Part shown: piece after piece, positions 22,334-64,000 of the stretch | Layout of the letters: the number at the start of each line of letters is the position of its first letter | Numbering within the stretch: the stretch's first letter is position 1 | Source of the DNA: a virus | Taxonomy: Duplodnaviria; Caudoviricetes | IMG/VR virus record: IMGVR_UViG_2724679206_000002 | Location: 1-64,000 of that record | DNA length: 64,000 nucleotides | Reading direction: 5' to 3' (one strand) | The notes under the pieces: generated by a model | Databases searched by the model: none | Told to the model about the DNA's origin: nothing | What the model saw: only the letters and a program-made list of their open reading frames with translations | Made by a program: the position numbers and the translations under genes

Positions 22334-22840
22334 ATGGGCAATCTCAACCTTACAGCCATTACAGATCAAACGCCGTATATTCAAAAGATTAAAGGCGCTT
22401 TAGAAAAGGCGACAGGGCAATCGATTCCGTTGACCGAAATTAAGAAGGTACAGCGCAAAGGTGGCGTCAGTGTTGCTCCAATTATATTTTTATTTGCCGG
22501 CGGCCAAGAACTCACTCTATTTGCCCGCGCAAGTGCTGATGTGTTTAAAGCTTCGCTCAATGGCAAAGAAATTGTTCTGTCCGGTGACTTCAGTGATGAC
22601 TATAAACAGACATTTGATAACGCCGTATCCGGTATTGCTCAGTTGATCCGCACCGCACAGCCGAAGATTGAGCAGCAGAATAAAAAAGAAAAAGTGAATA
22701 TTCCACGGCGCAAGTCCAATAGCGTTCCTAAACAGCTGTCCGAAAAACTGGAGCAGGAAAAGCAACTGGATCAAGATGTCGCAGATATGACAGCACATCG
22801 TGATCAGCTACTGCAGCAGTTAAAGCAGGCTACCCCATAG
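22334..22840 (+). CDS. DarA-related / Hdf-like head protein
   Basis: F.GGQ.LT segment similar to FEDGQSIT of 53963-55579; C-terminal coiled coil. Confidence 0.55.
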   Translation: MGNLNLTAITDQTPYIQKIKGALEKATGQSIPLTEIKKVQRKGGVSVAPIIFLFAGGQELTLFARASADVFKASLNGKEIVLSGDFSDDYKQTFDNAVSGIAQLIRTAQPKIEQQNKKEKVNIPRRKSNSVPKQLSEKLEQEKQLDQDVADMTAHRDQLLQQLKQATP

Positions 22841-23247: not shown

Positions 23248-24462
23248 ATGGTGCCAGTGATGAAAATTAAACATCCCATTCTAAAATTAGTCGTAAGCTG
23301 CCTTTGCTTAAATTCAACATATGCAATAGCCTCTCCTATCTTTCTCAATAATGGTAAAGTCCAAACGTCTAATATCTCTAGCAAAACGCCAGGAACAATC
23401 TTATCCATAAAAGAAGAGAATATCGATCTATTTACGAATGCTTCACAGCGGTTCTTAATCACTTACCGTAGTCGCGGAGTACGGTCTGAACCAATTGTGA
23501 CTTCAGGATATCTCTTACTGCCTAAAGGTAAAGTTCCCCAAGGGGGTTGGCCTGTTCTTGCTTGGGCTCATGGTACAACTGGTGTAGCAGATACTTGTGC
23601 ACCTTCTGGAGATTATGCCGGTGGACCAGTCCATGTCTATCAACAAATTGCCGCTAAAGCACTAAATGCCTGGCTTGCTCGTGGATATGCAGTCGTCGCT
23701 CCTGATTATCAGGGTTTAGGTACCCCAGGTGGACATCCATATATGAATGCACAAAGCCAGTTGCACACTGTCGTTGATGCTGTCCGGGCAACCCACCTTT
23801 TAAAGCCTTATAAATTTAGTAAAAACTGGTATGTAATGGGGCATAGTCAAGGAGGCGCAGCATCTTTGAAGGTTGCAGCGGATGGCCAGAAAGATGCACC
23901 TGAACTCAATTTAAGAGGTGCCATTGCACTCGCACCAGGTGGCTATCAATACCAAGGAATCGCTGAATACGTAGCAACCCATTCTCAAATTGAAACAAGT
24001 GTTGCCGCATTTTTTCCAATCGTGCTTCTGGGAGCAGAAGCAGCAGATCCTAGCATAGCTCCAGCAAATTTAGTTAGCTCAGACATGGGGGAAATTCTAA
24101 ATTATGCACGTAATCGCTGTTTGTCAGAATTACAATCTGATCTAAAGACAGCACCTAAAACAGTTTTTAAACCGAATGTAAATTTGACACCTTTGACAAA
24201 TTATTTAAAAAAACAGTCTATTGATAATATGACACCTACTGTGCCGACTCTAATTGTACAAGGTGATAAAGATCAGCTTGTAGATTACAGTGGTACTTAT
24301 GCTTACTATCAGCAAATATGTAAGACGCAAAAACCTATTTCCTTTCACCCAGTCAAAAATGGAGATCATCGTGACTCTTTAAGACAAAGTGAATTCCTGA
24401 TTGGAAGCTTTATCAATTCAGTTGAACAAGGGAAAACTGTAAATACCTGCAATTCAAAATGA
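23248..24462 (+). CDS. Secreted lipase (LIP / alpha-beta hydrolase), moron
   Basis: Signal peptide, WAHGTTG, PDYQGLG, GHSQG nucleophile, QGDKD and GDH triad residues. Confidence 0.88.
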   Translation: MVPVMKIKHPILKLVVSCLCLNSTYAIASPIFLNNGKVQTSNISSKTPGTILSIKEENIDLFTNASQRFLITYRSRGVRSEPIVTSGYLLLPKGKVPQGGWPVLAWAHGTTGVADTCAPSGDYAGGPVHVYQQIAAKALNAWLARGYAVVAPDYQGLGTPGGHPYMNAQSQLHTVVDAVRATHLLKPYKFSKNWYVMGHSQGGAASLKVAADGQKDAPELNLRGAIALAPGGYQYQGIAEYVATHSQIETSVAAFFPIVLLGAEAADPSIAPANLVSSDMGEILNYARNRCLSELQSDLKTAPKTVFKPNVNLTPLTNYLKKQSIDNMTPTVPTLIVQGDKDQLVDYSGTYAYYQQICKTQKPISFHPVKNGDHRDSLRQSEFLIGSFINSVEQGKTVNTCNSK

Positions 24463-24555: not shown

Positions 24556-25332
24556 ATGATGCCACAAAGTTTATTATCACTGACGAATAAAATAGCACTT
24601 GTAACAGGCGGTGCAGCAGGTATTGGGAAAGCCAGCGCTCTTATTCTTGCACAAGCAGGCTCGGACGTTATGATTGCCGATTTAAATTTAGAAGTAGCTA
24701 AACATACAGCTGAAGAAATAAAGAAACTAACTGGACGCAACATAGAATATGTTGCATGCAATATTCTGCAAGATGATCAATTGGTCAATGCAGTGAATAA
24801 AACAATCGAAATTTTTGGTCACATTCACATCTTAGTTAACAATGCTGGAGGAGGTGGCGGTGGCCGTGAATCTCCTGATCAAATTACCATAGATACTATA
24901 GAACGTGATTTTCAGCTTAATGTGTTTGCTGCTTGGCGATTGTGTCAACTCGTCGCACCGCATATGAATAAAGCGGGTTACGGCTCAATAATAAATATCA
25001 GCTCTATGAGTTCAATTAACAAAAGCCCTGCTATGAGCGGATATGCATCATCAAAAGCAGCGTTAAATCATATGGTCGCTAATTTGGCACATGATTTTGG
25101 TCCGAATATACGTATTAATGCTGTAGGACCTGGAGCGATTCGTACCGCAGCACTAGAAAAAGTCCTGAAGCCTGAGATTGAAAAAAAGATGCTCTCCCAT
25201 ACACCATTGCAACGATTAGGTGAACCCGAAGATATCGCGAGAGCTGTATTATTCTTTGCCTCACCTATTTCATCATGGATTTCTGGACAAACCTTATTTG
25301 TAAATGGTGGTGGTGTACAAACACTTGATTAA
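24556..25332 (+). CDS. SDR oxidoreductase, 7-alpha-hydroxysteroid dehydrogenase-like, moron
   Basis: TGGAAGIG, NNAGGGG, SSMS, YASSKAA, GPGAIRT, SWISGQ...GGG; pattern close to HdhA. Confidence 0.8.
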   Translation: MMPQSLLSLTNKIALVTGGAAGIGKASALILAQAGSDVMIADLNLEVAKHTAEEIKKLTGRNIEYVACNILQDDQLVNAVNKTIEIFGHIHILVNNAGGGGGGRESPDQITIDTIERDFQLNVFAAWRLCQLVAPHMNKAGYGSIINISSMSSINKSPAMSGYASSKAALNHMVANLAHDFGPNIRINAVGPGAIRTAALEKVLKPEIEKKMLSHTPLQRLGEPEDIARAVLFFASPISSWISGQTLFVNGGGVQTLD

Positions 25333-29149: not shown

Positions 29150-29374
29150 ATGCTGACTAAAATCCGTTGCTGTAAAAAAGCCAATGATCAGTATGTTGAT
29201 TTAGATGACATTTCATATATTGAAGTTTCCGACACTGACTATTGCGGTGGAATGCGAGGGTATGAAAGTAAATATGCCAGCGTCATTTTAGGCATGAAAA
29301 ATGGTCTTACTGTGTTGCTGACAATGGAAAGAACTAAACTTGATGAGCTTACAGCACGTAAATCTCAAGTCTAA
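29150..29374 (+). CDS. Small hypothetical protein
   Basis: AAGGAG RBS. Confidence 0.55.
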   Translation: MLTKIRCCKKANDQYVDLDDISYIEVSDTDYCGGMRGYESKYASVILGMKNGLTVLLTMERTKLDELTARKSQV

Positions 29375-31675: not shown

Positions 31676-31713
31676 AGCACTTAAGTGCTCTGCACATTGC
31701 ATGGCGCGGCATT

Positions 31714-31754
31714 TTGGAACAGCTGTAAAACATTAAATTTTAAAAACTTAGAAT
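31714..31754 (+). promoter_or_regulatory. Late promoter motif (terL)
   Basis: TTGGAAC-N28-TAGAAT. Confidence 0.75.
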
Positions 31755-31783: not shown

Positions 31784-33790
31784 ATGGCACTCCAACCTCT
31801 TAAAGAAATCCCTGAATGGTGGGAACTCTGCACCCGCTACCGCTATGACATTTATGCCTTTGCGGTCGAAGCGCTGGGCATTACACCAACATGGCAGCAG
31901 GAACTTTTATTTGAGTCAATTGCCTTTGACGGCAGCCGCACATCTGTAGCATCCGGTCATGGCTGTTTTGGTAAAGGCACAAAGATCCGCTTAGCAAATG
32001 GCAAGTGGAAGCGTGTTGAAAAAATAACAATTAAAGACGCCGTACTGGGAAGTGACGGCATTACACCGAGGGAAGTGATCAGCACCGTTACAGGCTGGCA
32101 GGATCTCTACCGCTTTGAATATGAAAATGGCAAAAGCCATGTCTACAACAAGTCACACATCCTTTGTTTAATTTCACTTGAAACCAAAAACGGCTGGAAA
32201 GCCGGCGATACCATGGAAGTTTTGGTTTCTAAATGGCTGGAATGGCCTGAGGAAACTAAACGCCAATTTGCTGCCTACGAGCTGAAGCATAAGAAATACA
32301 TCCCAGTACGCATTGAGCGCGCCGTATCACTGGGAGAAGGCGAGTATTTCGGCTTTATGCTGGATGGTGATTCAACTTTCCTCACTGCTGACGGCATGGT
32401 GCATCACAATACAGGCAAAACCGCTTCGGCAGGGGTCGTTGCACTCTGGCATCTGCTGTTCTTTGATGAATCGATCATGATGTTTACTGCCCCGCAAATT
32501 GGGCAGCTGAAAAAACAGGTATGGAAAGAAATCAGCATTAACCTGGCGCGGCTTAAAAATGGCCCGCTGGCTTGGCTGGCTGATTATGTCGGTTTCCAGT
32601 CTGAACTGGTTTACATCAAAGGATCAAAAGAAAAGTGGTATGTCTTTGCCAAGACGGCTCCAAAACATCAGCCGACTAACCTTGCAGGGAACCATGGCGA
32701 CAATTACATGGTTTGGGTGGATGAGGCCAGCGGTGTAGCGGATGAAGTTCTGGATGTTGCATTTGGTGCCTTAACGCACGAAGACAACCGTGCGGTAATG
32801 ACTTCACAGCCTACCCGTAATGCGGGCATGTTCTATGAAACACATCATACGTTGAGCCACCGCTCTGGCGGTGTGTGGACTGCGCTTACATTCAACGGTG
32901 AAGAATCTCCGCTGGTCAGTAAGCAGTCTTTAGCGGAACAGCGCCAAAAGTACGGCAGCCGTGATGATCCTCAATATCAAATTCGTGTTTTAGGTCAATT
33001 CCCAGACCGTGCCGATGAATTCCTTATAACCAAGCGCCAAGCAGAAGATATGTACTGCGGCGCTTCAATATTTACTGAGCACATTTTTGGCTATGTGATC
33101 ACGGTCGATGTCGGCGGCGGTGTAGGCCGAGACGATTCTGTTATTGCTGTATCTAAAGTTTGGGGTGAAGCGCAATGGGGGGATCGGGCGCGGCGGGTTG
33201 AAGTGGTTGATATACCGCTTTGCAAGAATAGAGATGATATTACTGAGCTGTTCGCAAAAATTCATGAATGCATTTTGAAATATCCGAATGCCACGCTGGT
33301 TGTCGATGACAATGGCGCCGGCAAGGGCTTAGGCCAGCTGCTGAAGAAAAACGGCATCTGGTATATGCCTGTGCATTGGGGCGGCGCATGCTTCAATAAT
33401 GACAACCGCAAAGAGTATGTGAATAAACGCGCTTTGGCCTATGTGGGTCTTTACCGGGCGGTAGAGCAGGGCCGGTTTAAAATTAAAACCATTAAGTTCA
33501 AAATTAAGGTACAGGCTCAGATTATTAAGATCCCTTATACATTCGATGAGCACAGTCGCTATAAGATTTTCAGTAAGGATGAAATGAAACGCATGGGGAT
33601 TAAATCCCCCGATTTAGGTGATGTTTTCGCCTTCTTATTTTTGGAAAATGTGTTCTATACCGAAGCGTATGAAAATGTTGCTGTCTTGGATGAAAGTCCA
33701 GAGGCGCAGGAGCAGGCAGCAAGAAAATCACGTTTCAGTCAGCTGAAAGAAGCCGCGGAAAAAGAATTTGGAAAAGATGGGAATAAGTAA
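31784..33790 (+). CDS. terL: Terminase large subunit containing a mini-intein
   Basis: Walker A SGHG/TGKT split by the intein, Walker B VWVDEA, nuclease DVGGG, DDNG, SPDLGD. Confidence 0.93.
   Translation: MALQPLKEIPEWWELCTRYRYDIYAFAVEALGITPTWQQELLFESIAFDGSRTSVASGHGCFGKGTKIRLANGKWKRVEKITIKDAVLGSDGITPREVISTVTGWQDLYRFEYENGKSHVYNKSHILCLISLETKNGWKAGDTMEVLVSKWLEWPEETKRQFAAYELKHKKYIPVRIERAVSLGEGEYFGFMLDGDSTFLTADGMVHHNTGKTASAGVVALWHLLFFDESIMMFTAPQIGQLKKQVWKEISINLARLKNGPLAWLADYVGFQSELVYIKGSKEKWYVFAKTAPKHQPTNLAGNHGDNYMVWVDEASGVADEVLDVAFGALTHEDNRAVMTSQPTRNAGMFYETHHTLSHRSGGVWTALTFNGEESPLVSKQSLAEQRQKYGSRDDPQYQIRVLGQFPDRADEFLITKRQAEDMYCGASIFTEHIFGYVITVDVGGGVGRDDSVIAVSKVWGEAQWGDRARRVEVVDIPLCKNRDDITELFAKIHECILKYPNATLVVDDNGAGKGLGQLLKKNGIWYMPVHWGGACFNNDNRKEYVNKRALAYVGLYRAVEQGRFKIKTIKFKIKVQAQIIKIPYTFDEHSRYKIFSKDEMKRMGIKSPDLGDVFAFLFLENVFYTEAYENVAVLDESPEAQEQAARKSRFSQLKEAAEKEFGKDGNK
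31964..32410 (+). mobile_element. Mini-intein (149 aa, Hint domain only) in the TerL P-loop
   Basis: Starts CFGKGTKI, block B N.SH.L, ends FLTADGMVHHN followed by Thr; removal restores GHGTGKT. Confidence 0.92.
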
Positions 33791-33802
33791 AAGCCCCGCT
33801 AT

Positions 33803-33877
33803 TTGGAACAGCTCCCTAATTTTGAGCGGTGGAGTGCTTAGTATTCAGCTTTATCGTTAGAATTCGAGTACTGAATA
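33803..33877 (+). promoter_or_regulatory. Late promoter motif plus hairpin (TerL-nuclease paralog)
   Basis: TTGGAAC-N29-TAGTAT; TATTCAG/CTGAATA abutting the ATG. Confidence 0.75.
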
Positions 33878-34657
33878 ATGAAACAGGTATTTAAGACTGT
33901 AAACCTGCTGGCGGCAGGTGTCCAATTGCTCGGAGATTTAAAAGGGCCACTCCTGAATTTTAAGAATAATGTGCGCCGTAATAGAAATGACCCCAGCCCT
34001 AAATATAAGCAGCTATTTACACCTGAAATGATTAATAAAGCCTACTTAAACCCAGCGCTGCAGCTGAAAAATTTCGGACATTTCATTATTGTGAATGCAC
34101 GATATACAGCAGTTGCTGCGGTGCAAGGCAATACGTCTAAAACACGAAAGACGGTAGTTTTAGAGTTTAAAGAAAATAGGGCTATGAGTATTGACGATAT
34201 TCTACAGCTTTTATCCACATACCCTGCAGCAACACTCAGTGTTAATGATAATGGTGAGGGTAAATTCCTAGGCCAGTTATTAAAGAAAAACGGCATTTGG
34301 TATATGCCAGTGCACTGGGGTGGAAACTGCTTTAGTAATGACAATCGTAAAGAGTATGTCAATAAGCGTGCACAGTCTTATGCCTGCTTATCTTACGCAG
34401 TCAATACGTATAGCTTTAAAATTTGCCAGCCGCACAATAACGAAAAAGTATTGAAAGAACTCAAAAGCATTCGTTACAGCTTTGATGAGCGTTCACGCTT
34501 TAGAATCATGCCAGTATCTGAGATGCGTGAGATCGGGCTTGATGTTCCAGATATTGCAGATTTATTTGCCCAGATTTTTTTAGAAGGTACCGCGTATTCA
34601 TTGGAACTAAACAGTCCTGACTTATCCACGCCAGCTAACAATACCCAAAGTGATTAA
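33878..34657 (+). CDS. Stand-alone paralog of the TerL C-terminal nuclease domain, catalytically degenerate
   Basis: Shares LGQLLKKNGIWYMPVHWGG.CF.NDNRKEYVNKRA, FDE.SR and PD..D.FA..FLE with TerL. Confidence 0.85.
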   Translation: MKQVFKTVNLLAAGVQLLGDLKGPLLNFKNNVRRNRNDPSPKYKQLFTPEMINKAYLNPALQLKNFGHFIIVNARYTAVAAVQGNTSKTRKTVVLEFKENRAMSIDDILQLLSTYPAATLSVNDNGEGKFLGQLLKKNGIWYMPVHWGGNCFSNDNRKEYVNKRAQSYACLSYAVNTYSFKICQPHNNEKVLKELKSIRYSFDERSRFRIMPVSEMREIGLDVPDIADLFAQIFLEGTAYSLELNSPDLSTPANNTQSD

Positions 34658-34668: not shown

Positions 34669-36738
<2,070 letters not shown>

Positions 36739-45078: not shown

Positions 45079-46698
45079 TTAATGAAACACAGTTTCAAGT
45101 GCTTTTAACCCTACTTTTGGGTCTAGCAAACCATTGTAGATGTCTGGAATTTCTCGATTTACACCAAAAAATTCATAAATAGCGAGCATAGCGCCACGCA
45201 CTGAATATTCAACAGTAAAAACCACATCATCTTCGATTTCTACGAACTGCCCCAAAAAGGCGAAGTTTTTTGAACCATGTGGAATAACTAAAGGACGGTC
45301 ACCAGGTTTGCGGCATGCGAACAATGCGGATGCATACGGCATCATGGCTGTCGTCACATCAGTTGTATCTAAAACATGTTCTAAGATGTCATCAAAACCA
45401 AGTTGCTTAACGAGTTCAGTTAAAATCTCTTTACCTGTTGCTTCACACATTGGTTTCTTAATGTAGTTACCTTGATGGTCTATTTGGAAACCATAGCCCC
45501 ACAAAGTGTATATACCTTCCGGCAAATCGGCAAAATGGGGCTGTGCAGGAACAACAATTGATAAGTGCCAGCCAGATTCAAACCAAGTCATCAGCGCGCC
45601 TGTACCGGGCTCATTACCCGTATAGTCAATGATACGCTTTAATAGCACATCATCTTTCATTGTAAGGGTGAACGATTCCCATTTATGCTCATCGACGTTG
45701 CCGCAAAAAGTCATCGGGCGTCCAAAATCAGGGGCTTTTTTGGCTAAAGTTTCCCACAATGTCCAGCCATGATCCAAACGATCACGGATTAAAGGTGGCA
45801 CATCATCATTGCCTCCATAACGTGAATCTGCAGTAATTGATCCTAATGTGAATATAGCTAAGTCTTGTGGTTTAACTTCAATCTGCTCTGTGCCCTCAGG
45901 CAGCTTGACATATAATCGCGTCGCTTGGCGCTCTTGAGTTTGTGCGTCTGTGACAAAGTCTGCATCAGTCACATAATTTCCAAAGCGAACATCAACACCT
46001 TGTGCCGTCAACCAGCGTTGTAGAGGCAAAATCATAGAATCATACTGATTGTATTTAGTACGTTTTACGCCAGCGAGGGTATGAATACGTGGTAATTCCT
46101 GAATGAATCGTAAAAAATAGCGACGCAATTCGGCGGCGCTATGCCATTTTTGAAAGGCAAAGGTGGTACGCCACATGCGCCAGAAATTGGTGTCAAAAAA
46201 AGCCTCATCAAAAAATTCGTCAATACGCCGGCTACCAATTTTTTCCTCTTTAGAGGCAAGTAGGCGCAACATTTGTGCGCGGTGCATTGTGTTAAGTCCT
46301 AACTTTGCAGCGTCAGCAATATTATGTTTTGAATCAATCAATCGCGCTTGAGCATGAGTTTTAATCTGCTCATTGAATTGGCGGCACTCTTCACGTACAG
46401 AAATTTCCGGGTTTTCTAAAGAAGGAATACTGGAAAATAAGTCCCAAAGGCATAAATAGGTTTCATCTGTTAACATACGCCCGCCACGCGTCACCCACGC
46501 CTGAGCAGCATGTGGGGTATGGCCGCCGTCCATTGATCCGCCGGAGATATCAAGCTCTTCCAGAATATGAATGTTTTTTGCAGGAACTTTGGCATCACGG
46601 ATGGCAAAAGCCGCCGCTGCCATACCTGCAATACCTCCGCCAATAATCCAAAGATGTGAATGCTGCGGATCCAAAGCACTGCGTTTATTATTTTGCAT
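45079..46698 (-). CDS. Oleate hydratase (MCRA family), moron
   Basis: GGGIAG FAD motif, GGSMDG, RGGRM, YNQYDSMILPL, FTVEYSVR. Confidence 0.93.
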   Translation of the reverse strand: MQNNKRSALDPQHSHLWIIGGGIAGMAAAAFAIRDAKVPAKNIHILEELDISGGSMDGGHTPHAAQAWVTRGGRMLTDETYLCLWDLFSSIPSLENPEISVREECRQFNEQIKTHAQARLIDSKHNIADAAKLGLNTMHRAQMLRLLASKEEKIGSRRIDEFFDEAFFDTNFWRMWRTTFAFQKWHSAAELRRYFLRFIQELPRIHTLAGVKRTKYNQYDSMILPLQRWLTAQGVDVRFGNYVTDADFVTDAQTQERQATRLYVKLPEGTEQIEVKPQDLAIFTLGSITADSRYGGNDDVPPLIRDRLDHGWTLWETLAKKAPDFGRPMTFCGNVDEHKWESFTLTMKDDVLLKRIIDYTGNEPGTGALMTWFESGWHLSIVVPAQPHFADLPEGIYTLWGYGFQIDHQGNYIKKPMCEATGKEILTELVKQLGFDDILEHVLDTTDVTTAMMPYASALFACRKPGDRPLVIPHGSKNFAFLGQFVEIEDDVVFTVEYSVRGAMLAIYEFFGVNREIPDIYNGLLDPKVGLKALETVFH

Positions 46699-51712: not shown

Positions 51713-53248
51713 ATGGCTGCTTCAGACATCCTTTCGTTATTGCTTGGTCCTAGCGCCAATAGTGTTCCTCTGCAGCTGGCGAATGACAATCAGGAAACTA
51801 TGGTGCAAATGTTTGACTCATTTGCACCATTTTCGCTTGGTACAAATTCAACTGTAGAAAACCGTAAGCGAACCCGCAAAGAAATATATACAAAATGGGA
51901 GCAGATGCTCCGTTTCGCGCCTGTTGCAGAGGGAATTGGCATTCATGTCACTGCAGCTTTAGGCGGTGATACCCATAATGGTCAGCAAATTTTTATAACA
52001 CCGGCTGAGCGCTTGCGGGGTGAAACCGGTGCTGCTGCTAAAGAGCAGCTGGAACGGTTGCAAAAGCGTATCAAGCCCATGGAAACCTTGATTAATAAAT
52101 ACATCACTAAGATTTGCTCTGACGGCATTTCATTTGGCGATGCTTATGCACGGATCTATGGGAAGAAAAGTAAAGGCGTTACAGATATGCTCTGTAATGA
52201 GTTCACTCATCCGCCCTTATTGCAGTCCTTTGAGCAAGGCAGCAAAACCGTCGCTTTTTTTGCCTTAAATCCAAAAAACTGGGTCAAAACCATTACTAAA
52301 ATGAGTTCTACACAAATGGTCCGGCTAAAGATGCCCCGTATTGTGAATGTGCCTCAATTTGATTTAGTTGAAACTGGGTTGATCGTACAGATGCTCGAAA
52401 GAGATGAACCCGATGAATTACCGATCCTGCCTGCTATGGTTGGCGGTTCATTCCTGTTTGCAATTGAGAAAGCATATGATGACGTCATGCTGTCTTTAAC
52501 AACAATGAATAGCCAGCAGGTTGCAGATGCAGTCAACCAGATGTTTTTATCCCTTAATATGGCAGGCATGCCAGAAGCGCAGCGCGAAGCATACAAGCGC
52601 GGTTTAGAAGGTATGCTGCAAGATCATGAGAAATTCGTAAAAAATGCGATGTCTGGTGGAGAAGGTATTTGGAATACCAAATATCATGTATTGCCGACCT
52701 GGGACGAAAAACAGATCTTAAACCCAGTCGGTGACATTAAAGGCCAGCGCAATTCACCGATTAATATTGAAACATTCATGATCAATGTACGCCTGCTGAT
52801 GGGCGGCTTTGGACTTGATCCATCGATGGTTGGTTGGGCGGATATGCTGGCGGGCGGTTTAGGAGATGGAGCCGCGACATTAACATATTCCAGCCAGGTG
52901 ATGCGGCGCTCTATGTGGATTCGGCAGTCAGCAACACAATTCGTGAATGACATTATGCATCTTGATTGGGGCTATGCATACAATGAACAGTTTGATCAGC
53001 TGGATTTCCCATGGCAGGTTGAATTCTCAAGTAGCCAATCTGCTGCCGTGACTGAAGAAAATACAAATAAGCAAACGCAAATGAATACTTCACTGCTGAA
53101 GATTCAAGTCATTAACTCATTGAAAGAATCCAATCTCAGTGAAGAGACCATGCAGTACATATTAGAAAAAGATGCTGGCTTCAATTATGACGATGCCAAT
53201 CGTGTGGCTAAAGATATTGCAGCTTCAAGACAAAATGAATCGGAGTAG
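51713..53248 (+). CDS. Portal protein
   Basis: 511 aa; FGDAY, GGSFL, FGLDPSMVG motifs typical of portals; N-terminal MFDS. Confidence 0.72.
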   Translation: MAASDILSLLLGPSANSVPLQLANDNQETMVQMFDSFAPFSLGTNSTVENRKRTRKEIYTKWEQMLRFAPVAEGIGIHVTAALGGDTHNGQQIFITPAERLRGETGAAAKEQLERLQKRIKPMETLINKYITKICSDGISFGDAYARIYGKKSKGVTDMLCNEFTHPPLLQSFEQGSKTVAFFALNPKNWVKTITKMSSTQMVRLKMPRIVNVPQFDLVETGLIVQMLERDEPDELPILPAMVGGSFLFAIEKAYDDVMLSLTTMNSQQVADAVNQMFLSLNMAGMPEAQREAYKRGLEGMLQDHEKFVKNAMSGGEGIWNTKYHVLPTWDEKQILNPVGDIKGQRNSPINIETFMINVRLLMGGFGLDPSMVGWADMLAGGLGDGAATLTYSSQVMRRSMWIRQSATQFVNDIMHLDWGYAYNEQFDQLDFPWQVEFSSSQSAAVTEENTNKQTQMNTSLLKIQVINSLKESNLSEETMQYILEKDAGFNYDDANRVAKDIAASRQNESE

Positions 53249-53962: not shown

Positions 53963-55579
53963 ATGCGTAATATTGATATTTTCAAACAGCACTGGGCGCC
54001 GCATCAGTCCCGCATCGTTGCCGGCTTTGACTCAGCTGTAAACAGCGGAACATGCTTAATTGGCGTTATTCAAGGCAAGTATCGGACGCTGAATGCGATT
54101 GTGACTGAGACTGCGACAGAAGATGATCAGTGGCGTATCGTGAATTTGAAGGGCCATAAAGATAGTATTCCAGCTTTTGATTCAATTGCCGTATTGGGCG
54201 CCGTAGACGATACGCAGGCTTCGGCACTTGCAGGACTGCAGTTCGGCCGCATGTTTGATTCTGCCGTAGACTCAGTAATTGAAACCAATCCGCAGGGGCT
54301 GATGCGCCATTTGGCGGCGCCGTATTACCACAAAACCCCAAATATCATCCCGGAATGGCAGCTGGCCCAGCTTCAGGATGTCACATGCGCCACTGTGCCC
54401 GGCTGGGACGGAATCAGTCTGACGTCCCATGACGGACAGACCGCCAATTTAATGCTGGATCTGCAGCGGCATGATGACCATGGCGGTCTGCTGCAGGAAT
54501 TTGACGGACTGGCGCCGCTGCTTGAGTCTATCGGCGCTGTGTATGCGGACTTTGATTCAATCATTGTTGAATATCAGTATTTGGAAAAGCTGATGGCCAT
54601 GCTTCACAAAGTGATGCAAAGCACTTCAAAAGGTGGGGTAAAAATTCTGAATGTTGAACAAAGTGAAAAGCCGTTTAAGCATAAAAAAGTATTGAATATT
54701 GCTGTTACTTATAATTTTGAAGATGGTCAAAGCATTACAATCCTGTTTCATCATCCAGACCGTGAAGCTAAAAAAATTACGCCGCAGGATATGCTGATTT
54801 CATGGAAGATCCTCATGAATAGCCGTGATATTACAGGCGCTATTCAGCCGAATCAGGGTGAAGGAATTGAGATGCCGGTACTGGCAGGCCGGATCATGAA
54901 ACTGGTCAATCAGAACAGCGCCCGCTTTAAGCGCACTCAGGCTAAAAAGGCAGAAAATGTTCAGGCCTTAGCCGATGCAGAACAACGTTTGTTTGATAAA
55001 CAGGGGATAAAAGCTGCGCTTGAGGCCGAAATTCAGGGTTTGCTGAATCAGCTGGATCAACAACAGGCACAGCAATTAGCCCAACAAACATCACAAAATG
55101 AGGATATTCCTGCTGAACCTGCTAAGGCATATCCGCCAATAGAAGATTTAGGCGACGGTTATTACCAGGCATTTAAAAATGATAAGAAAGTAGATTCTTG
55201 GACGGCACATTTGAATACAAACGGTAAATGGGAAGTATCAGCAAACAACGCTCAAACACGTGCATGGAACCGTGGATTTGGAGCGCCACGATTCTTTAAT
55301 ACTATTGATGAGATGATTGCAAAGTATCCTGCATTTGGTGAACTGGCAGAGTTGTTGGAGACATCGAATGCATCCAGCGGCAACAAAGGTGATTCTGATG
55401 ATGCTGATTATTTGAATCAAGTCATTAAGGGTGAAGTGGATTTTTCGAAGTCAAATGAAGTTGAAACGAAGCTTGAAGACATTGGCAGCCGGCTTACTGC
55501 AGAAATTAATGACTTATTTGAGCAGGCCGTTACTTCCTATTCAGTTTATCAAGTCGGCCAAGCCTCACAAATTCATTGA
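53963..55579 (+). CDS. DarA-like (defence against restriction) internal head protein
   Basis: FEDGQSITILFH.PD...WKILMNSRDIT...KLVNQNSARF DarA N-terminal pattern; coiled coil; four FDS motifs. Confidence 0.72.
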   Translation: MRNIDIFKQHWAPHQSRIVAGFDSAVNSGTCLIGVIQGKYRTLNAIVTETATEDDQWRIVNLKGHKDSIPAFDSIAVLGAVDDTQASALAGLQFGRMFDSAVDSVIETNPQGLMRHLAAPYYHKTPNIIPEWQLAQLQDVTCATVPGWDGISLTSHDGQTANLMLDLQRHDDHGGLLQEFDGLAPLLESIGAVYADFDSIIVEYQYLEKLMAMLHKVMQSTSKGGVKILNVEQSEKPFKHKKVLNIAVTYNFEDGQSITILFHHPDREAKKITPQDMLISWKILMNSRDITGAIQPNQGEGIEMPVLAGRIMKLVNQNSARFKRTQAKKAENVQALADAEQRLFDKQGIKAALEAEIQGLLNQLDQQQAQQLAQQTSQNEDIPAEPAKAYPPIEDLGDGYYQAFKNDKKVDSWTAHLNTNGKWEVSANNAQTRAWNRGFGAPRFFNTIDEMIAKYPAFGELAELLETSNASSGNKGDSDDADYLNQVIKGEVDFSKSNEVETKLEDIGSRLTAEINDLFEQAVTSYSVYQVGQASQIH

Positions 55580-55967: not shown

Positions 55968-58802
55968 ATGAGTGATTTTGCAAAAATTGACAACATTCAG
56001 GATGAATCTGAAGTTTTAACAACAATCGATAAATTAATCTCAAAAGTTGAGAATAATGAGATTGTTGAATGGGACAGTGAGCAGGCAGAAAAACTGTACC
56101 GCGAATATCTGGCAAATCTTGATAAGTATGATGGCAAGTCTATTGCTGCATCAAAGGCCTATTTTAATGATCACCTAAATGGCAAGCTGGTGCACACCAA
56201 AATTGGTTTAGTCCGTATTAATTCAAAATCAAGAGGTAAGGTTCATGACCGGATGCGGGATGTTAAATATTTGGCTATCCCATATATTCCTGAAGTTTTA
56301 ATGACGGGTGAAATTAGTGATTTAGTGCCATTAAATAAAGACCGTACTGATAGCGTAGAAGGGTATTATATTTTTGAAAAGTCAAAGCAGCTGAATGACT
56401 TCACGCTAAATATAACTTTGAAAGTGGCATTAGATTCTGAAGGGCATTTATTATATTACTTAGGCGCATCAAAAGAAAAAAGCCAACTTACACCTATCTC
56501 ACAGGTCGTTAACCCCATAGGCTTGGAAGCTGGCTTTGACTCTATTGAATCACGGTATGAAGACGAAATCAATATTGATGTACAAGTTTTAGACAAAGAT
56601 GGCAATGTGCTATCTCAAGCGGACGCCTTGAAAGCATTATTAAAAAAATACGGTATTAATAATATTGTAAAAGGCCGCAACAATAAGGTTAAGACAGCCA
56701 AAGGAACACAGGTTTCAACCGTATTTGCATTACTTGAGACTAAAGACGTCATCGCTTCGCATACAGCCGCCGGCGCTGAAAATACTGAATACCCTCAGGA
56801 ACTGCAGCCGCGTGACCGCAGCCGCGAATCCTCACAGGCTTGGGTTCAAAAAACGTCAAATGGATTAGATACTGAAAGTCTTGGGCGATCTGGCCGAGCC
56901 GATACTGGCGCCCCAATTGTAGGGGATGATTTGGTCGTTGAATCGGGCAATGGCCGCACCATGGCTATTAAGCTGGCTTATGAACGCGGGCAGGCTGAAG
57001 AATACCGGCAATGGCTGATTGAAGAAGCCGAATATTTTGGATTTTCATCAGATCAGGTTGAGAATTTTACTGCTCCTATTTTGGTACGCATTCGCACTTC
57101 AGTTGTGGACCGAGTTCAGTTCACGATAGAGGCCAATCAGGACGATAAGCTGTCATTCAGCGCCACTGAGCGCGCGAAATCAGATGCCAAGCGGCTGGAC
57201 GAAAACCTGCTGGCCTTATTTACTCCAGGCGATGACGGCGACCTGCTGACGGCCGGCAATCAGAAGTTCATTCATGGCTTCCTGAAATCCATAGGCGATA
57301 CGGAAGCGGCTCAGTACATCACCACCGAAGGCAAGCCGACTCAGGCGCTTGTTGCCCGGATCAAGGCTGCTATTTTCAGTAAAGCCTATAACGATGACCG
57401 GTTGCTGGAAATGATGGCTGATCAAACAAAACCAGATCTACAGAATATGTTGAATGCCTTAGGCGCCGCAGCGCCCAAGTTTATAGAGGCGCAAGCGGTA
57501 AGCCGTGGTGATATTCAGGATGTATCCAGCTCAATTGTAGATGGGATCGAGCAGGCGCTGGACAAGCGCGTTACCAATGCCATTATTGATGCTGCCAATA
57601 CTATCGTTGCTGCAAAGCGGAATGACCAAGACATTGCAGAGTTTGTTCAGCAGCAGGGCTTATTTGGTGACTTGGGGGAGGGTGTGCCAGAGCTGGCAGT
57701 ATTCCTGTCAAAGAACAGCCGCAGCGCCAAAAAGATGAGCATGCTGTTTAAGGCAATGGCGGAATTTGCGGAAAAGCAGGCAATTGATCAGCTGAATATG
57801 GGGCTGTTTGGAGAGCCGGAACCAGTCAGCATTAAAGACGCGATCAGCTATGCCGCAGCAGTCATCAATGATAATTACGGGGACAATGCGACTATCAGCA
57901 TGTTTGACTCAGCGAATGAGGAATTCACGCTGTTTGATCAGCATGCCCATCAGGCAGCAACTTCTCCCTACAGCCGCGCCACGCTGCCGGAACAGGCGAA
58001 CTTGATTGCCGGCAAGTACCTTAAAGGCGCCGTAAAGATTGGTGAGCTGAATATCGCAATTAAAAATCCGGCAGACTCCGTCCGCGCTGGCACAGATCCC
58101 AGCGGAAAAAAATGGGAAGTCAAAATGCAGCATCACTATGGCTACATTGAAAATACAACGGGCGCGGATGGCGATGAAATCGATGTGTTTGTTAAAAACC
58201 ACTTGGATTCAGTACCGGAGCAAGCCTATATCATCCGGCAGCTGAATGCCGCCGGCGCCTTTGATGAGCATAAAATCATTATCGGCGCTGAATCTGAGAA
58301 TGAGGCTAAACAGATCTATCATTCAAATTTTGAACCGGGCTGGCAAGGCTTCGGGAGCATTCAGCGGATTGCAATGGCTGATCTGCCGCAGAAGCTTCAG
58401 CACACCTGGTCTGAGTTTGATTCATGGGCAGCAGACGGCAGCTATGAGCATATTCCATTAAAGCAAATTGTCACAGACAAGGCGCTTAAAGTGGACGAAA
58501 GCAAAATCAACAAAGAAGATCCGGTGCTGGTGATTGAAAAAGGGCATAAGTATTATCTTGTTGTCGGGCTGGAGCGGCTAAAGCTGGCCGCCCAGCGACA
58601 TGAAAGCCTGGTACCGGCGATCATTTTTGATGACAGGGATGTGAAGAGCAAAATCATTCAGAATGCCTTGAGAAAGGCCGGCAGCACAGTGGATACGGTT
58701 GCCCTTGCAGCCTTGATTGTTGATGAGATGGAGAAAATTTTAATTTCCAGTTTTGATTCGGCAGCCAATTCATTGTTTGAAATCCTTTACCAGTCCAGCT
58801 GA
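55968..58802 (+). CDS. Polyvalent DdrB-like protein: LPD-type domain, DdrB-ParB, inorganic-pyrophosphatase-like and degenerate ParB domains
   Basis: YPQELQPRDR, GAPIV...VESGNGR; HYGYI..T.GADGDEIDVF, FDEHK; PVLV...YYLVVGLER. Confidence 0.75.
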   Translation: MSDFAKIDNIQDESEVLTTIDKLISKVENNEIVEWDSEQAEKLYREYLANLDKYDGKSIAASKAYFNDHLNGKLVHTKIGLVRINSKSRGKVHDRMRDVKYLAIPYIPEVLMTGEISDLVPLNKDRTDSVEGYYIFEKSKQLNDFTLNITLKVALDSEGHLLYYLGASKEKSQLTPISQVVNPIGLEAGFDSIESRYEDEINIDVQVLDKDGNVLSQADALKALLKKYGINNIVKGRNNKVKTAKGTQVSTVFALLETKDVIASHTAAGAENTEYPQELQPRDRSRESSQAWVQKTSNGLDTESLGRSGRADTGAPIVGDDLVVESGNGRTMAIKLAYERGQAEEYRQWLIEEAEYFGFSSDQVENFTAPILVRIRTSVVDRVQFTIEANQDDKLSFSATERAKSDAKRLDENLLALFTPGDDGDLLTAGNQKFIHGFLKSIGDTEAAQYITTEGKPTQALVARIKAAIFSKAYNDDRLLEMMADQTKPDLQNMLNALGAAAPKFIEAQAVSRGDIQDVSSSIVDGIEQALDKRVTNAIIDAANTIVAAKRNDQDIAEFVQQQGLFGDLGEGVPELAVFLSKNSRSAKKMSMLFKAMAEFAEKQAIDQLNMGLFGEPEPVSIKDAISYAAAVINDNYGDNATISMFDSANEEFTLFDQHAHQAATSPYSRATLPEQANLIAGKYLKGAVKIGELNIAIKNPADSVRAGTDPSGKKWEVKMQHHYGYIENTTGADGDEIDVFVKNHLDSVPEQAYIIRQLNAAGAFDEHKIIIGAESENEAKQIYHSNFEPGWQGFGSIQRIAMADLPQKLQHTWSEFDSWAADGSYEHIPLKQIVTDKALKVDESKINKEDPVLVIEKGHKYYLVVGLERLKLAAQRHESLVPAIIFDDRDVKSKIIQNALRKAGSTVDTVALAALIVDEMEKILISSFDSAANSLFEILYQSS

Positions 58803-60727: not shown

Positions 60728-61108
60728 ATGCAGGAAAATACTTTCCCTTGGATCATTAAGATTATTCCAGCTGTTGTTGGGGCTTTACTCGCTTTGGTGT
60801 TGAGCGGCGACATTGATAAGACAGGGAAAATTCAAGTTTCAATGTCTGTCATTGGCAAGTTTGCGGCAAGTGTCACGGTGAGCTTATACGGTGGATCTGC
60901 CTTCATTGAATACTTTGGAATGCTTAAAGCATCAACGATGTATCAAGGTTTTGTGATGCTGATGTTTGCTGTTTTTGGCCTTCTTGCGATCGGGATTTTA
61001 TATCAGTCAATTGCTTTGCTGAAGGGAAAACCTTTACCAGAAGTTATTGCTGAAATTAAGTCTGCCTTTCTTGCTATTTGGAGCAGCGGAAAAGGGGGCA
61101 ATGACTAA
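60728..61108 (+). CDS. Holin
   Basis: Three hydrophobic helices, TAATG-coupled to lysozyme; start ATG 60728. Confidence 0.75.
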   Translation: MQENTFPWIIKIIPAVVGALLALVLSGDIDKTGKIQVSMSVIGKFAASVTVSLYGGSAFIEYFGMLKASTMYQGFVMLMFAVFGLLAIGILYQSIALLKGKPLPEVIAEIKSAFLAIWSSGKGGND

Positions 61109-61728
61109 TGAGTATTGATCAATCGCAACAAATTGCGCAAACATATTCATGGCTGCGGGCCATGTCCGGCGGTAAGTTGTCAGTGGATCAAGTTATAGCT
61201 GGTGATCAGATTATTGCTACAAGTGGTTTAAGCACTTTTGCACAATCAATCGGATTTGTATTGCCTTCATCTGTGGCCACAGGTCAATGGGATATCTCAG
61301 ATAAAGGGTATGCATTAATTCGTGAACTTGAAGGTTTTAAAGCTGACGCATATTTGGACACCGGTGGCGTTTGGACAATTGGTTTTGGTACCATCAAATA
61401 TCCCGATGGAACGCGGGTACGAAAAGGAGATGTTTGCACACGCGGGCAAGCTGAAGTATGGCTTAAAAATGACAGTGCATGGGTAGATACTTGCTTAGAT
61501 CGAACTGTTAAAACAAAAATAACTCAAACCCAATTTGATGCTTTGGCCAGCTTTGTTTACAACATTGGTGAAACAGCATTTGTAAAAAGCACTATGCTGA
61601 CTCTAATCAATCAAAATAATTTAACTGGTGCTGCAAACCAGTTTGATCGATGGGTATTTGATAATGGAAAGCGGGTGCAGGGCCTTGTTAATCGTCGCCT
61701 TAAAGAAAAGTCGCTATTCTTATCGTGA
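61108..61728 (+). CDS. Endolysin, GH24 phage lysozyme
   Basis: EG....YLDTGGVWTIGFGT E-D-T triad, FDALASFVYNIG, GLVNRR..E..LF. Confidence 0.93.
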   Translation: MSIDQSQQIAQTYSWLRAMSGGKLSVDQVIAGDQIIATSGLSTFAQSIGFVLPSSVATGQWDISDKGYALIRELEGFKADAYLDTGGVWTIGFGTIKYPDGTRVRKGDVCTRGQAEVWLKNDSAWVDTCLDRTVKTKITQTQFDALASFVYNIGETAFVKSTMLTLINQNNLTGAANQFDRWVFDNGKRVQGLVNRRLKEKSLFLS

Positions 61729-61798: not shown

Positions 61799-64000
61799 TT
61801 ATGTTTTCATTATATTACTGGGAATAAAATTGCTCTCAATCCAATACTTAAGATATTTATGTAAAATTTCTTGATTTAAAGTTGGGGATTCTAAATTATT
61901 ACCTAAAGCTTTTTTGACATTATCCGTGCGATAAGTAGGCATATTTTCATAAACCTCCCAACGGGTCATTGAGCCATAGACAGGTTCTTTAAGCATAGGC
62001 AATAATGGCAGAAGTGGGTTGCTGTTCAAGTCACCAGATTTTTCTAAAATATTTATCCATTCTTGATACTGAACTAGCTCTAAGTTATAGCCATATTTAA
62101 GAAGATATCCGTGTAATTCAATTAAATTAATCGAATCATCAGGATTTAAAGGCACAAAATTATAACACTGCTGATAACACATTTTTTTTGCGATATTCAA
62201 TAAGCAACTACTTACATAATCTACTGCAATAAACTCTTTTTTCTGCTTCTCTAATTTAGGAAATACTCCTATTTCGATACAGCCTTTTAAAAATCTTGCT
62301 ACGAAGTCTTTTTCATTACCAATACCATTTTTACTATCTCCCATGATAAAACCAGGGCGATAGATATTAATCGGAAGGCCTTCATCTTGCGCTCTGATCA
62401 TTATTTTTTCTGCAACCCATTGGCTTTGAGAATAACCTGTATCGTATCTTAAGCAATCGAGATGCTTATCCAAAGGTTCATTTTCACTTAAATCACTCAC
62501 TTTATTGAAAAAGCCAGTAGGTCCAAATGCAGCAATGCTTGAAGTATAATGTAAAGGTTTAACTCTATGATTAATTGAAAATTCAATTATGTTTAAGGTA
62601 CCTGTCACGTTGGCAGGCTTATGCACTGAGTAGGGTTGTGTATAATTTACATGAGCTCCCAAATGAAAAATACATGATATATCCTCACTGAGTTTTTCGT
62701 ATTCAGTATGCGTTAAGCCAAATAAGTTTTGATCTAAAAAACCACAGATAACTTTAATTTTTTTTAAATATGTTTCATCCCATAGATTGTATTTTTTTTG
62801 GTTGAGAATAATTTTTTCCAGACCGTCTGATATGTTTTTAGCTCTTACTAAGCAATAAACTGCTTTAATTGAATCTTCTTTACATAGGTCATTTAAAAAG
62901 AAAGCACCTAAAAATCCAGTGCTGCCCGTAAGAAATACGTTGCCTTCATTTTCGGATAGCCAATTAATTTGGTGATAATTTTTTTCAAATAATGGTAATT
63001 CTAAATTTCCATCGTTTCTTAATATTTCTACAGTATTGTCTATTGAAACACTTTCTATTTTATTGATTTTAGATTCAATTAATAGCGCTAATTTAATGAG
63101 TGTAGGATTTTCATACAGTTCAATAATAGGGATTTGAACATAAAAATGTTTTTCAATATCTATTACTAATGTTGCGACATGCAATGAACTCCCACCTAAT
63201 TCAAAGAAGTCATCATACTGATCTATTGATGAGTAATTAAGCAATTCAATCCAAAGTTTTCTCAATTTTTTTATAATATGGTTTTCATCACTTGTATCAA
63301 TTTTTTTATTTATATCTGACATTTCAAAAAGCTTTCTTTTATCAGCCTTGCCATTTGAATTTAATGCAATATATGGAACTAAAGAAATCCTAGGGAGCAT
63401 ATAATTTGGAAGAATTTTCCCTAATTTATCTTTTAGATCAAATAATGAAAATTCTTTTTTTAGAATAACATAGGCCATAATATAGGGTTCATGATGTATC
63501 TCAATAGGTTTGATGATATCTACAACTACCGATTCAACAAGCTTACTATGCAAAATTTCTTGCTCTATCTCCTCAAGATTTATACGATGTCCTCTAATTT
63601 TAATTTGATTATCTTTGCGTCCAAAGCATTCGAGAAAGTCATTGTTATTAATCCTTCCTAAATCCCCGGTACGGTAGATTTTTTGCTCAATGCCATTGAT
63701 GGTTATTGTGATAAATTTTTCCAAATTTTCTGTATCATTATTAGCATAACTTCTAGATACACCATCACCTGCTATCCCAATTTCTCCCATATCCCCCTTA
63801 TGCACGATTTCCATTTGATTGTTTAGGATGAATATATCTGTATTCGCAATTGGCCTTCCAATATCTATATTTTTATTATGATTTAAATATTCCAAAGTGA
63901 TATGCCTTGTACTTGCATAAGTTGTACATTCAGTTGGACCATATCCATTTCTTAAATTTTCTACGTTAGAATGAATTAATACTTGCTTCATAGCATAGGC
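61799..64000 (-). CDS. NRPS-like protein (adenylation, thiolation, terminal reductase), 5' end beyond the window
   Basis: YGPTECT, YRTGDLG, QIKIRGHRI, LNSNGK; FFELGGSSL carrier Ser; LTGSTGFLG reductase; frame open to window edge. Confidence 0.9.
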   Translation of the reverse strand, partial: AYAMKQVLIHSNVENLRNGYGPTECTTYASTRHITLEYLNHNKNIDIGRPIANTDIFILNNQMEIVHKGDMGEIGIAGDGVSRSYANNDTENLEKFITITINGIEQKIYRTGDLGRINNNDFLECFGRKDNQIKIRGHRINLEEIEQEILHSKLVESVVVDIIKPIEIHHEPYIMAYVILKKEFSLFDLKDKLGKILPNYMLPRISLVPYIALNSNGKADKRKLFEMSDINKKIDTSDENHIIKKLRKLWIELLNYSSIDQYDDFFELGGSSLHVATLVIDIEKHFYVQIPIIELYENPTLIKLALLIESKINKIESVSIDNTVEILRNDGNLELPLFEKNYHQINWLSENEGNVFLTGSTGFLGAFFLNDLCKEDSIKAVYCLVRAKNISDGLEKIILNQKKYNLWDETYLKKIKVICGFLDQNLFGLTHTEYEKLSEDISCIFHLGAHVNYTQPYSVHKPANVTGTLNIIEFSINHRVKPLHYTSSIAAFGPTGFFNKVSDLSENEPLDKHLDCLRYDTGYSQSQWVAEKIMIRAQDEGLPINIYRPGFIMGDSKNGIGNEKDFVARFLKGCIEIGVFPKLEKQKKEFIAVDYVSSCLLNIAKKMCYQQCYNFVPLNPDDSINLIELHGYLLKYGYNLELVQYQEWINILEKSGDLNSNPLLPLLPMLKEPVYGSMTRWEVYENMPTYRTDNVKKALGNNLESPTLNQEILHKYLKYWIESNFIPSNIMKT

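Follow-up and report, generated by a model that had tools for sequence, protein, structure and literature searches.

The window analysed here, a stretch of 64,000 nucleotides (G000:C11:150187-214186), contains an integrated tailed prophage with an integrase gene (206-1324) at one end and an endolysin gene (61108-61728) at the other. Its gene content includes a CI-like repressor, a Q-like antiterminator, sheath, tube, and baseplate proteins, a portal protein (51713-53248), and P1-like Hdf/DarB-like proteins. Loci related to the window came from Acinetobacter species, and the nearest cultured phage found for it was Acinetobacter phage vB_AbaM_ABMM1 (ABMM1). The genes of concern here lie on the + strand: terL (31784-33790), which encodes a large terminase of 668 aa; an ORF of 259 aa (33878-34657), which begins 87 nt past the terL stop in the same reading frame as terL; and a tail-collar fibre gene (34669-36738), which lies directly 3' of terL in relatives without the intervening cassette.

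Several features elsewhere in the window were noted in passing. Matches to Hdf-like and DarB-like PHROGs at 22334-22840, 53963-55579, and 55968-58802 suggest P1-style capsid-borne anti-restriction proteins. Metabolic cargo is represented by an MCRA-family (oleate-hydratase-like) gene at 45079-46698, located on the opposite (−) strand within the tail module, and by genes for a secretory-lipase-like hydrolase and a FabG-like reductase at 23248-24462 and 24556-25332. The low-GC gene flanking the prophage (window 61799-64000; G000:C11:211988-215035) encodes a carboxylic-acid-reductase-like protein of 1016 aa with AMP-binding, PP-binding, and NAD_binding_4 domains and is not a defence gene.

The resident large terminase

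TerL retains all three nuclease aspartates, D442, D508, and D613, and these, together with D610, were invariant in the 13 TerLs aligned. Its nuclease domain (about residues 426-626; 33059-33661, + strand), located by BLASTP and alignment, is the parent-type domain of the downstream paralogue and is followed by a charged C-terminal arm (residues 627-668; 33662-33787, + strand) that the paralogue does not have. Pfam was nearly blind to the C-terminal domain, giving only Terminase_6C at E 0.13. Walker A is split by a mini-intein of 149 aa (31964-32410, + strand; GHG/C...HN/TGKT, with slashes at the intein boundaries), which was recognized by Pfam Hom_end_hint at residues 61-130. Natural TerLs of 512 aa without the intein are present in L015 and L020, the former reading SGHGTGKT at Walker A. 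The intein itself is under purifying selection (Nei-Gojobori dN/dS 0.028-0.078, six pairs).

A stand-alone copy of the nuclease domain

The gene following terL had been described in the initial annotation as an intact ORF that aligned with the whole C-terminal domain of TerL. The ORF was intact, as described, and BLASTP aligned TerL residues 435-626 with residues 66-241 of its product (89/196 identical, 45%; E 1e-47); the alignment covers the whole nuclease domain, whereas the last ~42 residues of TerL (627-668) remained unmatched. Neither Pfam nor PHROGs gave a match for the ORF. A word-indexed protein search returned 26 proteins, consisting of the window's own, 22 family members, and three weaker partial matches. 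The 22 members were 61-78% identical to the ORF product and 223-282 aa long, and 21 of them spanned at least 93% of the query.

Structure prediction had been proposed as a check. An AF2 model was built from a 33-row alignment (mean pLDDT 79.7, pTM 0.76; residues 1-35 and 246-259 below pLDDT 50). Foldseek comparison of this model with the PDB gave 40 matches at E <= 0.001, terminases throughout among the matches listed, with the Sf6 gp2 nuclease domain (5c15) first (E 1.4e-8, TM 0.58/0.66) and the Sf6 gp2, E217, G20c, D6E, P22, and T4 terminases as the top matches. The model thus agrees with solved terminase nuclease domains.

The predicted protein begins with an extension (residues 1-45; 33878-34012, + strand) consisting of a low-confidence helix at residues 8-30 and an Arg/Lys/Asn-rich linker, whose length is altered from member to member of the family by tandem repeats. 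This is followed by the RNase H-like core of the nuclease domain (residues 46-241; 34013-34600, + strand), for which block-mean pLDDT was mostly 80-94. The protein has no ATPase domain and ends just past the last core helix, with a C-terminal tail of 19 aa (34598-34654, + strand) common to P0002, P0004, and P0018; the tail is present because the TGA stop usual in the family is TCA here, so that the ORF extends into the leader of the next gene. A read-through fusion of the ORF with TerL was considered and rejected; the frame is the same, but TAA, TAG, and TGA intervene. Compared with the nuclease domains of Sf6 gp2, Pseudomonas phage E217 TerL, G20c, D6E, P22, and T4 gp17, the protein has the same fold in the model but is encoded by a separate gene, lacks the ATPase domain, two aspartates, the Gly-rich loop after strand 1, and the arm, and has in addition the predicted N-terminal helix and the basic linker.

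Loss of the catalytic aspartates

Of the three metal-binding acids of TerL (D442, D508, and D613), only the third Asp is retained in the ORF family. The change from VVDDNG to SVNDNG that had been read from the window held throughout: D508 is invariant in 13/13 TerLs, and the corresponding residue is N in 23/23 family members. The change from TVDVGGG to IVNARY was correctly recognized as loss of an acidic residue (the D442 position is N in 21 of the 23 members and D in the other two), but more than a simple residue exchange took place, since the D-V-GGGVGRDDS loop has been shortened by five (BLAST) to nine (MAFFT) residues. The PD..D motif was kept, as had been claimed, with D225 and D228 present in at least 90% of family members. 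A weak HMM alignment to Sf6 gp2 (SPNLAD), read with the presumed numbering of its catalytic residues, suggests that the second Asp of PD..D is the conserved one. In RNase H-like/RuvC-like nucleases an Asp to Asn change in motif II preserves the shape of the pocket and abolishes catalysis. Having lost two of its three catalytic aspartates, the protein would have the nuclease fold but be an inactive member of it. We concluded from the alignments and the model that ORF 33878-34657 encodes a paralogue of the nuclease domain of TerL that stands alone and is, by prediction, catalytically dead, and we refer to it below as the pseudo-nuclease.

A variable accessory slot 3' of terL

In a genus sample of 247 genomes, 23 carried this type of TerL, and we inspected the gene 3' of terL in each. 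A pseudo-terminase occupied this position in 7 of the 23 (four C-type, one N-type, and two C-N), terL was directly followed by the tail-fibre gene in 13, and 3 had another context. Nuclease (C-type) copies follow terL in G000, G011, and G053, with the ORF intact in all three, and a divergent C-type protein of 258 aa, 29% identical, is found in G141. The N-type protein of G164 (= L005), of 254 aa, copies the ATPase domain of TerL, with 50% identity in the initial 56 aa and 30% in another 166 aa. This copy (L005:6765-7529; also L009:551-1315, − strand) is without an intein, has GWGCDEAM at Walker A and IDA at Walker B, which mark it as dead, and carries its own TTTGGAAC motif. The C-N proteins of G029 and G150 (567/573 aa; L032:688-2391 and L033:652-2373, both − strand) begin with the nuclease-like half and end with the ATPase-like half. 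In the ATPase-like copies, the GKT of Walker A is lost (GWGCDEAM, SGFTSKG) and the DE of Walker B has become DA, DI, or DV; in the C-N forms, all three nuclease acids are lost as well. An AF2 model of the G029 C-N protein had a mean pLDDT of 52.8 and a pTM of 0.40. Going by order of halves and residues lost, we regard the 567/573-aa proteins as circularly permuted and, by prediction, fully dead terminases. The pseudo-ATPase and permuted proteins of sister prophages thus share with the pseudo-nuclease the locus, the upstream motif, and the logic of a dead TerL domain, and differ from it in domain or order.

In the family-level sample this type of TerL occurred in 27/401 genomes, and an adjacent second copy in 2 of the 27. 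The cultured relative ABMM1 has no pseudo-nuclease gene, and none of 50,697 phage records contained the stand-alone gene, the sole two matches being terL genes. Metagenome contigs join 33780 to 34622/34635 and are natural variants without the cassette. We concluded that the pseudo-nuclease gene is an accessory cassette occupying a slot between terL and the tail-fibre gene, in which TerL domains are swappable. In one metagenomic relative, an additional gene of 402 aa and no known family (L035:681-1886) lies between terL and the gene upstream of it; this insertion ahead of terL is a second variable slot.

Integrity of the gene and selection on it

The initial annotation had stated that the gene did not look like debris and had named, among the findings that would refute its reading, homologues that are mostly frameshifted or neutrally evolving. 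Neither was found: the gene was full length in 21 of 22 related clusters, and dN/dS was well removed from neutrality in 10/10 pairs. For the latter we compared the five distinct ORF alleles available as DNA, those of the window, L003, L004 (= L037), L035, and the partial L038 (L036 gave the same match and ORFs as L035). The 10 pairs gave Nei-Gojobori dN/dS values of 0.185-0.263, with dS of 0.16-0.82. For TerL, six pairs gave 0.025-0.094 in the nuclease domain and 0.018-0.056 in the ATPase domain, and dN was ~4-6 times higher in the ORF than in the nuclease domain of TerL. These substitution patterns indicate that the ORF is under purifying selection, yet changes at non-synonymous sites faster than the nuclease domain of TerL.

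The alleles proved to be mosaic. Between the window and L003, synonymous differences numbered 0/19, 0/15, and 1/16 in three stretches of residues 94-221 and 28.5/36 in residues 41-93, and pN/pS in the divergent stretch was ~0.28; whole-gene averages of dN/dS therefore blend different histories. One segment of the ORF of ~115 nt (window about 34155-34270; residues 94-123) was near-invariant in DNA across the five alleles: each of the 10 pairs differed there at 0-3 of ~19 synonymous sites, compared with 40-70% in its flanks. The segment may mark a joint left by recombination or an element acting at the nucleotide level. Nucleotide-level constraint as a general explanation for the synonymous dips within the ORF was rejected, since the dips mostly reflect allele mosaicism and only residues 94-123 were low in 10/10 pairs.

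These results bear on the possibility that the gene is a functionless, slowly decaying remnant of a tandem terL duplication. A partial copy beside its parent gene and in the same frame is what such an event would leave, and the different remnants (C, N, and C-N) found in the slot from lineage to lineage could be viewed in the same way. Against this, the ORF is intact in 21/22 related clusters and in 3/3 genus genomes with its type, dN/dS remains at 0.185-0.263 while synonymous sites are at or near saturation, the protein has acquired a new conserved N-terminal segment, and each cassette has a conserved upstream motif. We consider a decaying relic highly improbable.

More distant relatives of the pseudo-nuclease

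An exhaustive profile-free search gave 90 matches. Among them were some ten additional stand-alone types, 205-297 aa long and encoded on contigs of at most 77 kb. The database entries of ten diverse relatives had either no name or only "hypothetical protein" (10/10). In a 15-row alignment, the Asp of motif II was Asn in 12/15 rows, the first Asp was retained only in P0018, and the TerL arm was absent from all 15; the pseudo-nuclease subfamilies were ~30% identical to each other. Neighbours in the ESM Atlas included viral clusters without a name (protein length 200-242 aa, cluster size 62 to 251), some of which may be active split terminases.

The family of the window was monophyletic (support 99/96, stem 0.78). 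When more types were added to the tree, 15 pseudo-nucleases formed one clade (SH-aLRT 96) and 4 were nested among TerLs; a single clade of all 19 was not rejected (p-AU 0.108), this group having been defined after the tree was seen. The branches are long and the tree is therefore unsafe, so that one origin and several are both possible. Full-text literature searches gave no description of a dead stand-alone nuclease domain of a terminase. To judge from these searches, the family to which the pseudo-nuclease belongs, conserved but unannotated and made up of dead copies of single terminase domains, is not in print.

A late-gene motif upstream of the pseudo-nuclease

The motif [AT]TTGGAAC (wTTGGAAC) occurs 14 times on the + strand of the window, and 13 of these copies lie in the late region, from 22264 to 60655, where they are found 33-83 nt ahead of + strand ORFs that include the terL, pseudo-nuclease, and tail-fibre genes. 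For ATTGGAAC alone there were 10 matches against 2.55 expected, and 0/100 shuffles reached 10. The copies of interest here, all on the + strand, are TTTGGAAC at 31713-31720, 71 nt upstream of terL; TTTGGAAC at 33802-33809, 76 nt ahead of the pseudo-nuclease ATG and kept in 4/4 aligned relatives; and ATTGGAAC at 34600-34607, 69 nt upstream of the tail-fibre gene and at the right edge of the cassette. Relatives also conserve the motif ahead of both the cassette and the tail-fibre gene, and each cassette found in the slot has one. wTTGGAAC is probably the late transcription signal of the phage. It often stands directly after a hairpin plus T-run, and several leaders have a strong AAAATAGCC...GGCTATTTT hairpin between the motif and the ATG (e.g. 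at 29374 and 58802).

The ORF had initially been credited with a late promoter and a hairpin of its own. The first part of this claim is matched by the late-gene motif TTTGGAAC at 33802, a putative promoter; the hairpin in the ORF leader (−16.9 kcal/mol) proved to be no better than those of shuffled sequences, 64/200 of which were equally stable (z −0.47), whereas strong leader hairpins at some other genes gave z of −4.7 and −2.7. A sigma-70 scan of the gap between terL and the paralogue gave no + strand site. Logan contigs from RNA-labelled runs (X17 and X18; X16 is RNA by guess) covered terL and the tail fibre and part of the pseudo-nuclease, the latter for example by one 203-nt X17 contig at 34427-34629 and, in X16, at a depth of 5-6; the contigs of all of these runs may stem from DNA carry-over.

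A block of 35 residues nearly identical to TerL

A stretch of ~35 aa, LGQLLKKNGIWYMPVHWGG.CF.NDNRKEYVNKRA, had been reported as nearly identical in TerL and the ORF product, and alignment gave 33/35 identical residues. The TerL copy lies at 33329-33433 and the paralogue copy at 34268-34372, both on the + strand, and the positions given earlier were correct to within 1-2 nt. In the model the block, a putative surface patch, spans a helix (residues 126-137), a strand (143-145), a loop, and the start of a further helix (163-176). It lies beside the active site and contains the motif NKRAQ, which is present even in Sf6 gp2. The two copies differ in DNA mostly at synonymous positions, again as reported: Nei-Gojobori counts were 17.5/20.0 synonymous and 3.5/85 non-synonymous sites (pS 0.875, pN 0.041), while in the rest of the domain 199.5/422 non-synonymous sites differed (pN 0.47). 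Three other prophages gave pS of 0.66-0.78 and pN of 0.065-0.11 for the block, and thus the contrast was present in 4/4 prophages. As synonymous sites in the block are saturated, its identity has been kept by selection on the protein, not by recent gene conversion; for the same reason, we rejected the idea that the gene is a silent cassette for gene conversion into terL.

Among TerLs, the first half of the block, LGQLLKKNGIWYMPVHWGG, occurs only in the subclade from G000, G011, and G053, the very genomes in which the gene is present; at this position sister TerLs have PVYWGG and more distant TerLs have LAQNLKSLGIFFKPMHWGG. The sharing of LGQLLKKNGIWYMPVHWGG would reflect either duplication or old conversion from the G000/G011/G053 subclade, or copies that co-evolve.

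A copy that tracks the resident TerL in this way might regulate the terminase of the phage itself, the dead domain binding DNA at the cleavage site or the ATPase domain of TerL, and thereby tuning or delaying headful cleavage; DNA affinity would be raised by the basic N-terminal linker. Such a role would account for a frozen block that lies, with its NKRAQ motif, beside the active site, for recurrence of the motif II Asp to Asn change in 12/15 diverse members, and for a gene that adjoins terL and bears the late-gene motif. The gene is, however, absent from 13/23 close relatives, some with TerLs about 90% identical (G170, G083, and G243), and from ABMM1, and it is therefore not required for packaging. 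The alternation of a nuclease copy and an ATPase copy in the slot from prophage to prophage would be odd for one fixed job, and the protein is fast-evolving with mosaic alleles. We regard a regulatory role as a doubtful but serious alternative.

The block bears also on whether dead TerL domains might be a weapon that poisons DNA packaging by competitors, either related phages that superinfect or satellites hijacking the terminase of this phage. Dead single domains of an oligomeric motor would be classic dominant-negative material, and a patchy, accessory, fast-diversifying distribution is what might be expected of such a gene. A block identical to that of its own TerL, however, would leave the phage's own motor as exposed as that of its rival, and the late-gene motif and late-region position are not the usual site of exclusion genes expressed in lysogeny. 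In addition, other phages reportedly dock TerL on the portal through its C-terminal arm (for D6E, PMC5727402); with no arm in the pseudo-nuclease, blocking of a rival's portal is unlikely. We view this explanation as improbable.

Discussion

We propose, with a probability of roughly 0.35, that the pseudo-nuclease is a harmless mimic that titrates a factor able to bind the nuclease domain of TerL. The mimic would be produced together with TerL late in infection and would absorb the TerL-domain-binding factor while itself neither cutting DNA nor joining the motor. The absorbed factor could be a host immune protein that senses terminase, or an inhibitor from a competing phage or satellite, and the frozen block of 35 aa would serve as the epitope for which identity with the real TerL is needed. 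Accessory distribution and fast evolution, which are typical of arms-race genes, are both properties of the pseudo-nuclease; its scattered occurrence, the exchange of domain types in the slot, and rapid divergence about a frozen patch speak more for an accessory gene in an arms race than for a core component of packaging. A block that tracks TerL would nevertheless suit a shared phage partner, such as the TerL ATPase domain or DNA, just as well as a decoy epitope.

What is known of terminase sensing also bears on the mimic. The initial annotation had drawn on Avs recognition in suggesting a decoy, and had offered a regulator of headful cleavage and an inhibitor of competing phage packaging as alternatives. 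Avs1-3 and Upx reportedly target terminase directly, one TerL domain can suffice, and SeAvs3 is reported to read the terminase active-site residues and bound ATP (10.64898/2026.04.30.721860). The sensing of terminase by Avs1-3 and Upx, together with the engagement of Avs2 by TerL-ATPase-like proteins, leads us to favour the mimic over the other readings. A pseudo-nuclease without active-site residues may be invisible to a SeAvs3-like sensor instead of competing for it, which weakens the Avs3 version of the proposal. When 20 of the 94 host-genome ORFs of at least 800 aa were run through PADLOC, no Avs was found among them; there were SspC, PDC-S06, and LmuB-like matches, and the lysogen is perhaps not the relevant host.

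Close parallels are T4 vs.8 and Ksap2, which are likewise stand-alone phage proteins resembling one TerL domain and are reportedly tied to terminase-sensing immunity (10.64898/2026.04.30.721860, PMC11564622). From their descriptions there, on which the likeness is based, they differ in being ATPase-domain-like rather than nuclease-like and in being reported as activators of Avs2, not blockers; vs.8 reportedly retains Walker A and B. ORF55 and ORF83 of DruSM1 are likewise phage accessory genes, proposed to act against terminase-sensing type III Avs (10.1101/2025.06.06.658234). As described there, they are a DNA ligase and a DprA/Smf-like protein and are thereby set apart from mimics of the sensed protein.

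The large terminase is a major molecular pattern by which bacteria detect phages, and the known phage answers to its detection are very few. It is conceivable, though we think it unlikely, that pseudo-terminases, as dead stand-alone copies of the nuclease domain, of the ATPase domain, or of both in permuted order, arise repeatedly in tailed phages with one TerL epitope kept frozen, and that they would constitute a new class of counter-defence. Through mimicry of the sensed protein, such a class would blunt either terminase sensing, by Avs1-3, Upx, or unknown Acinetobacter sensors, or terminase inhibitors encoded by satellites. If the copies are not decoys, they would be pseudo-enzyme partners of the packaging motor, which would be new as well. 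Under either reading, the slot and its motif are useful for the annotation of Acinetobacter prophages.
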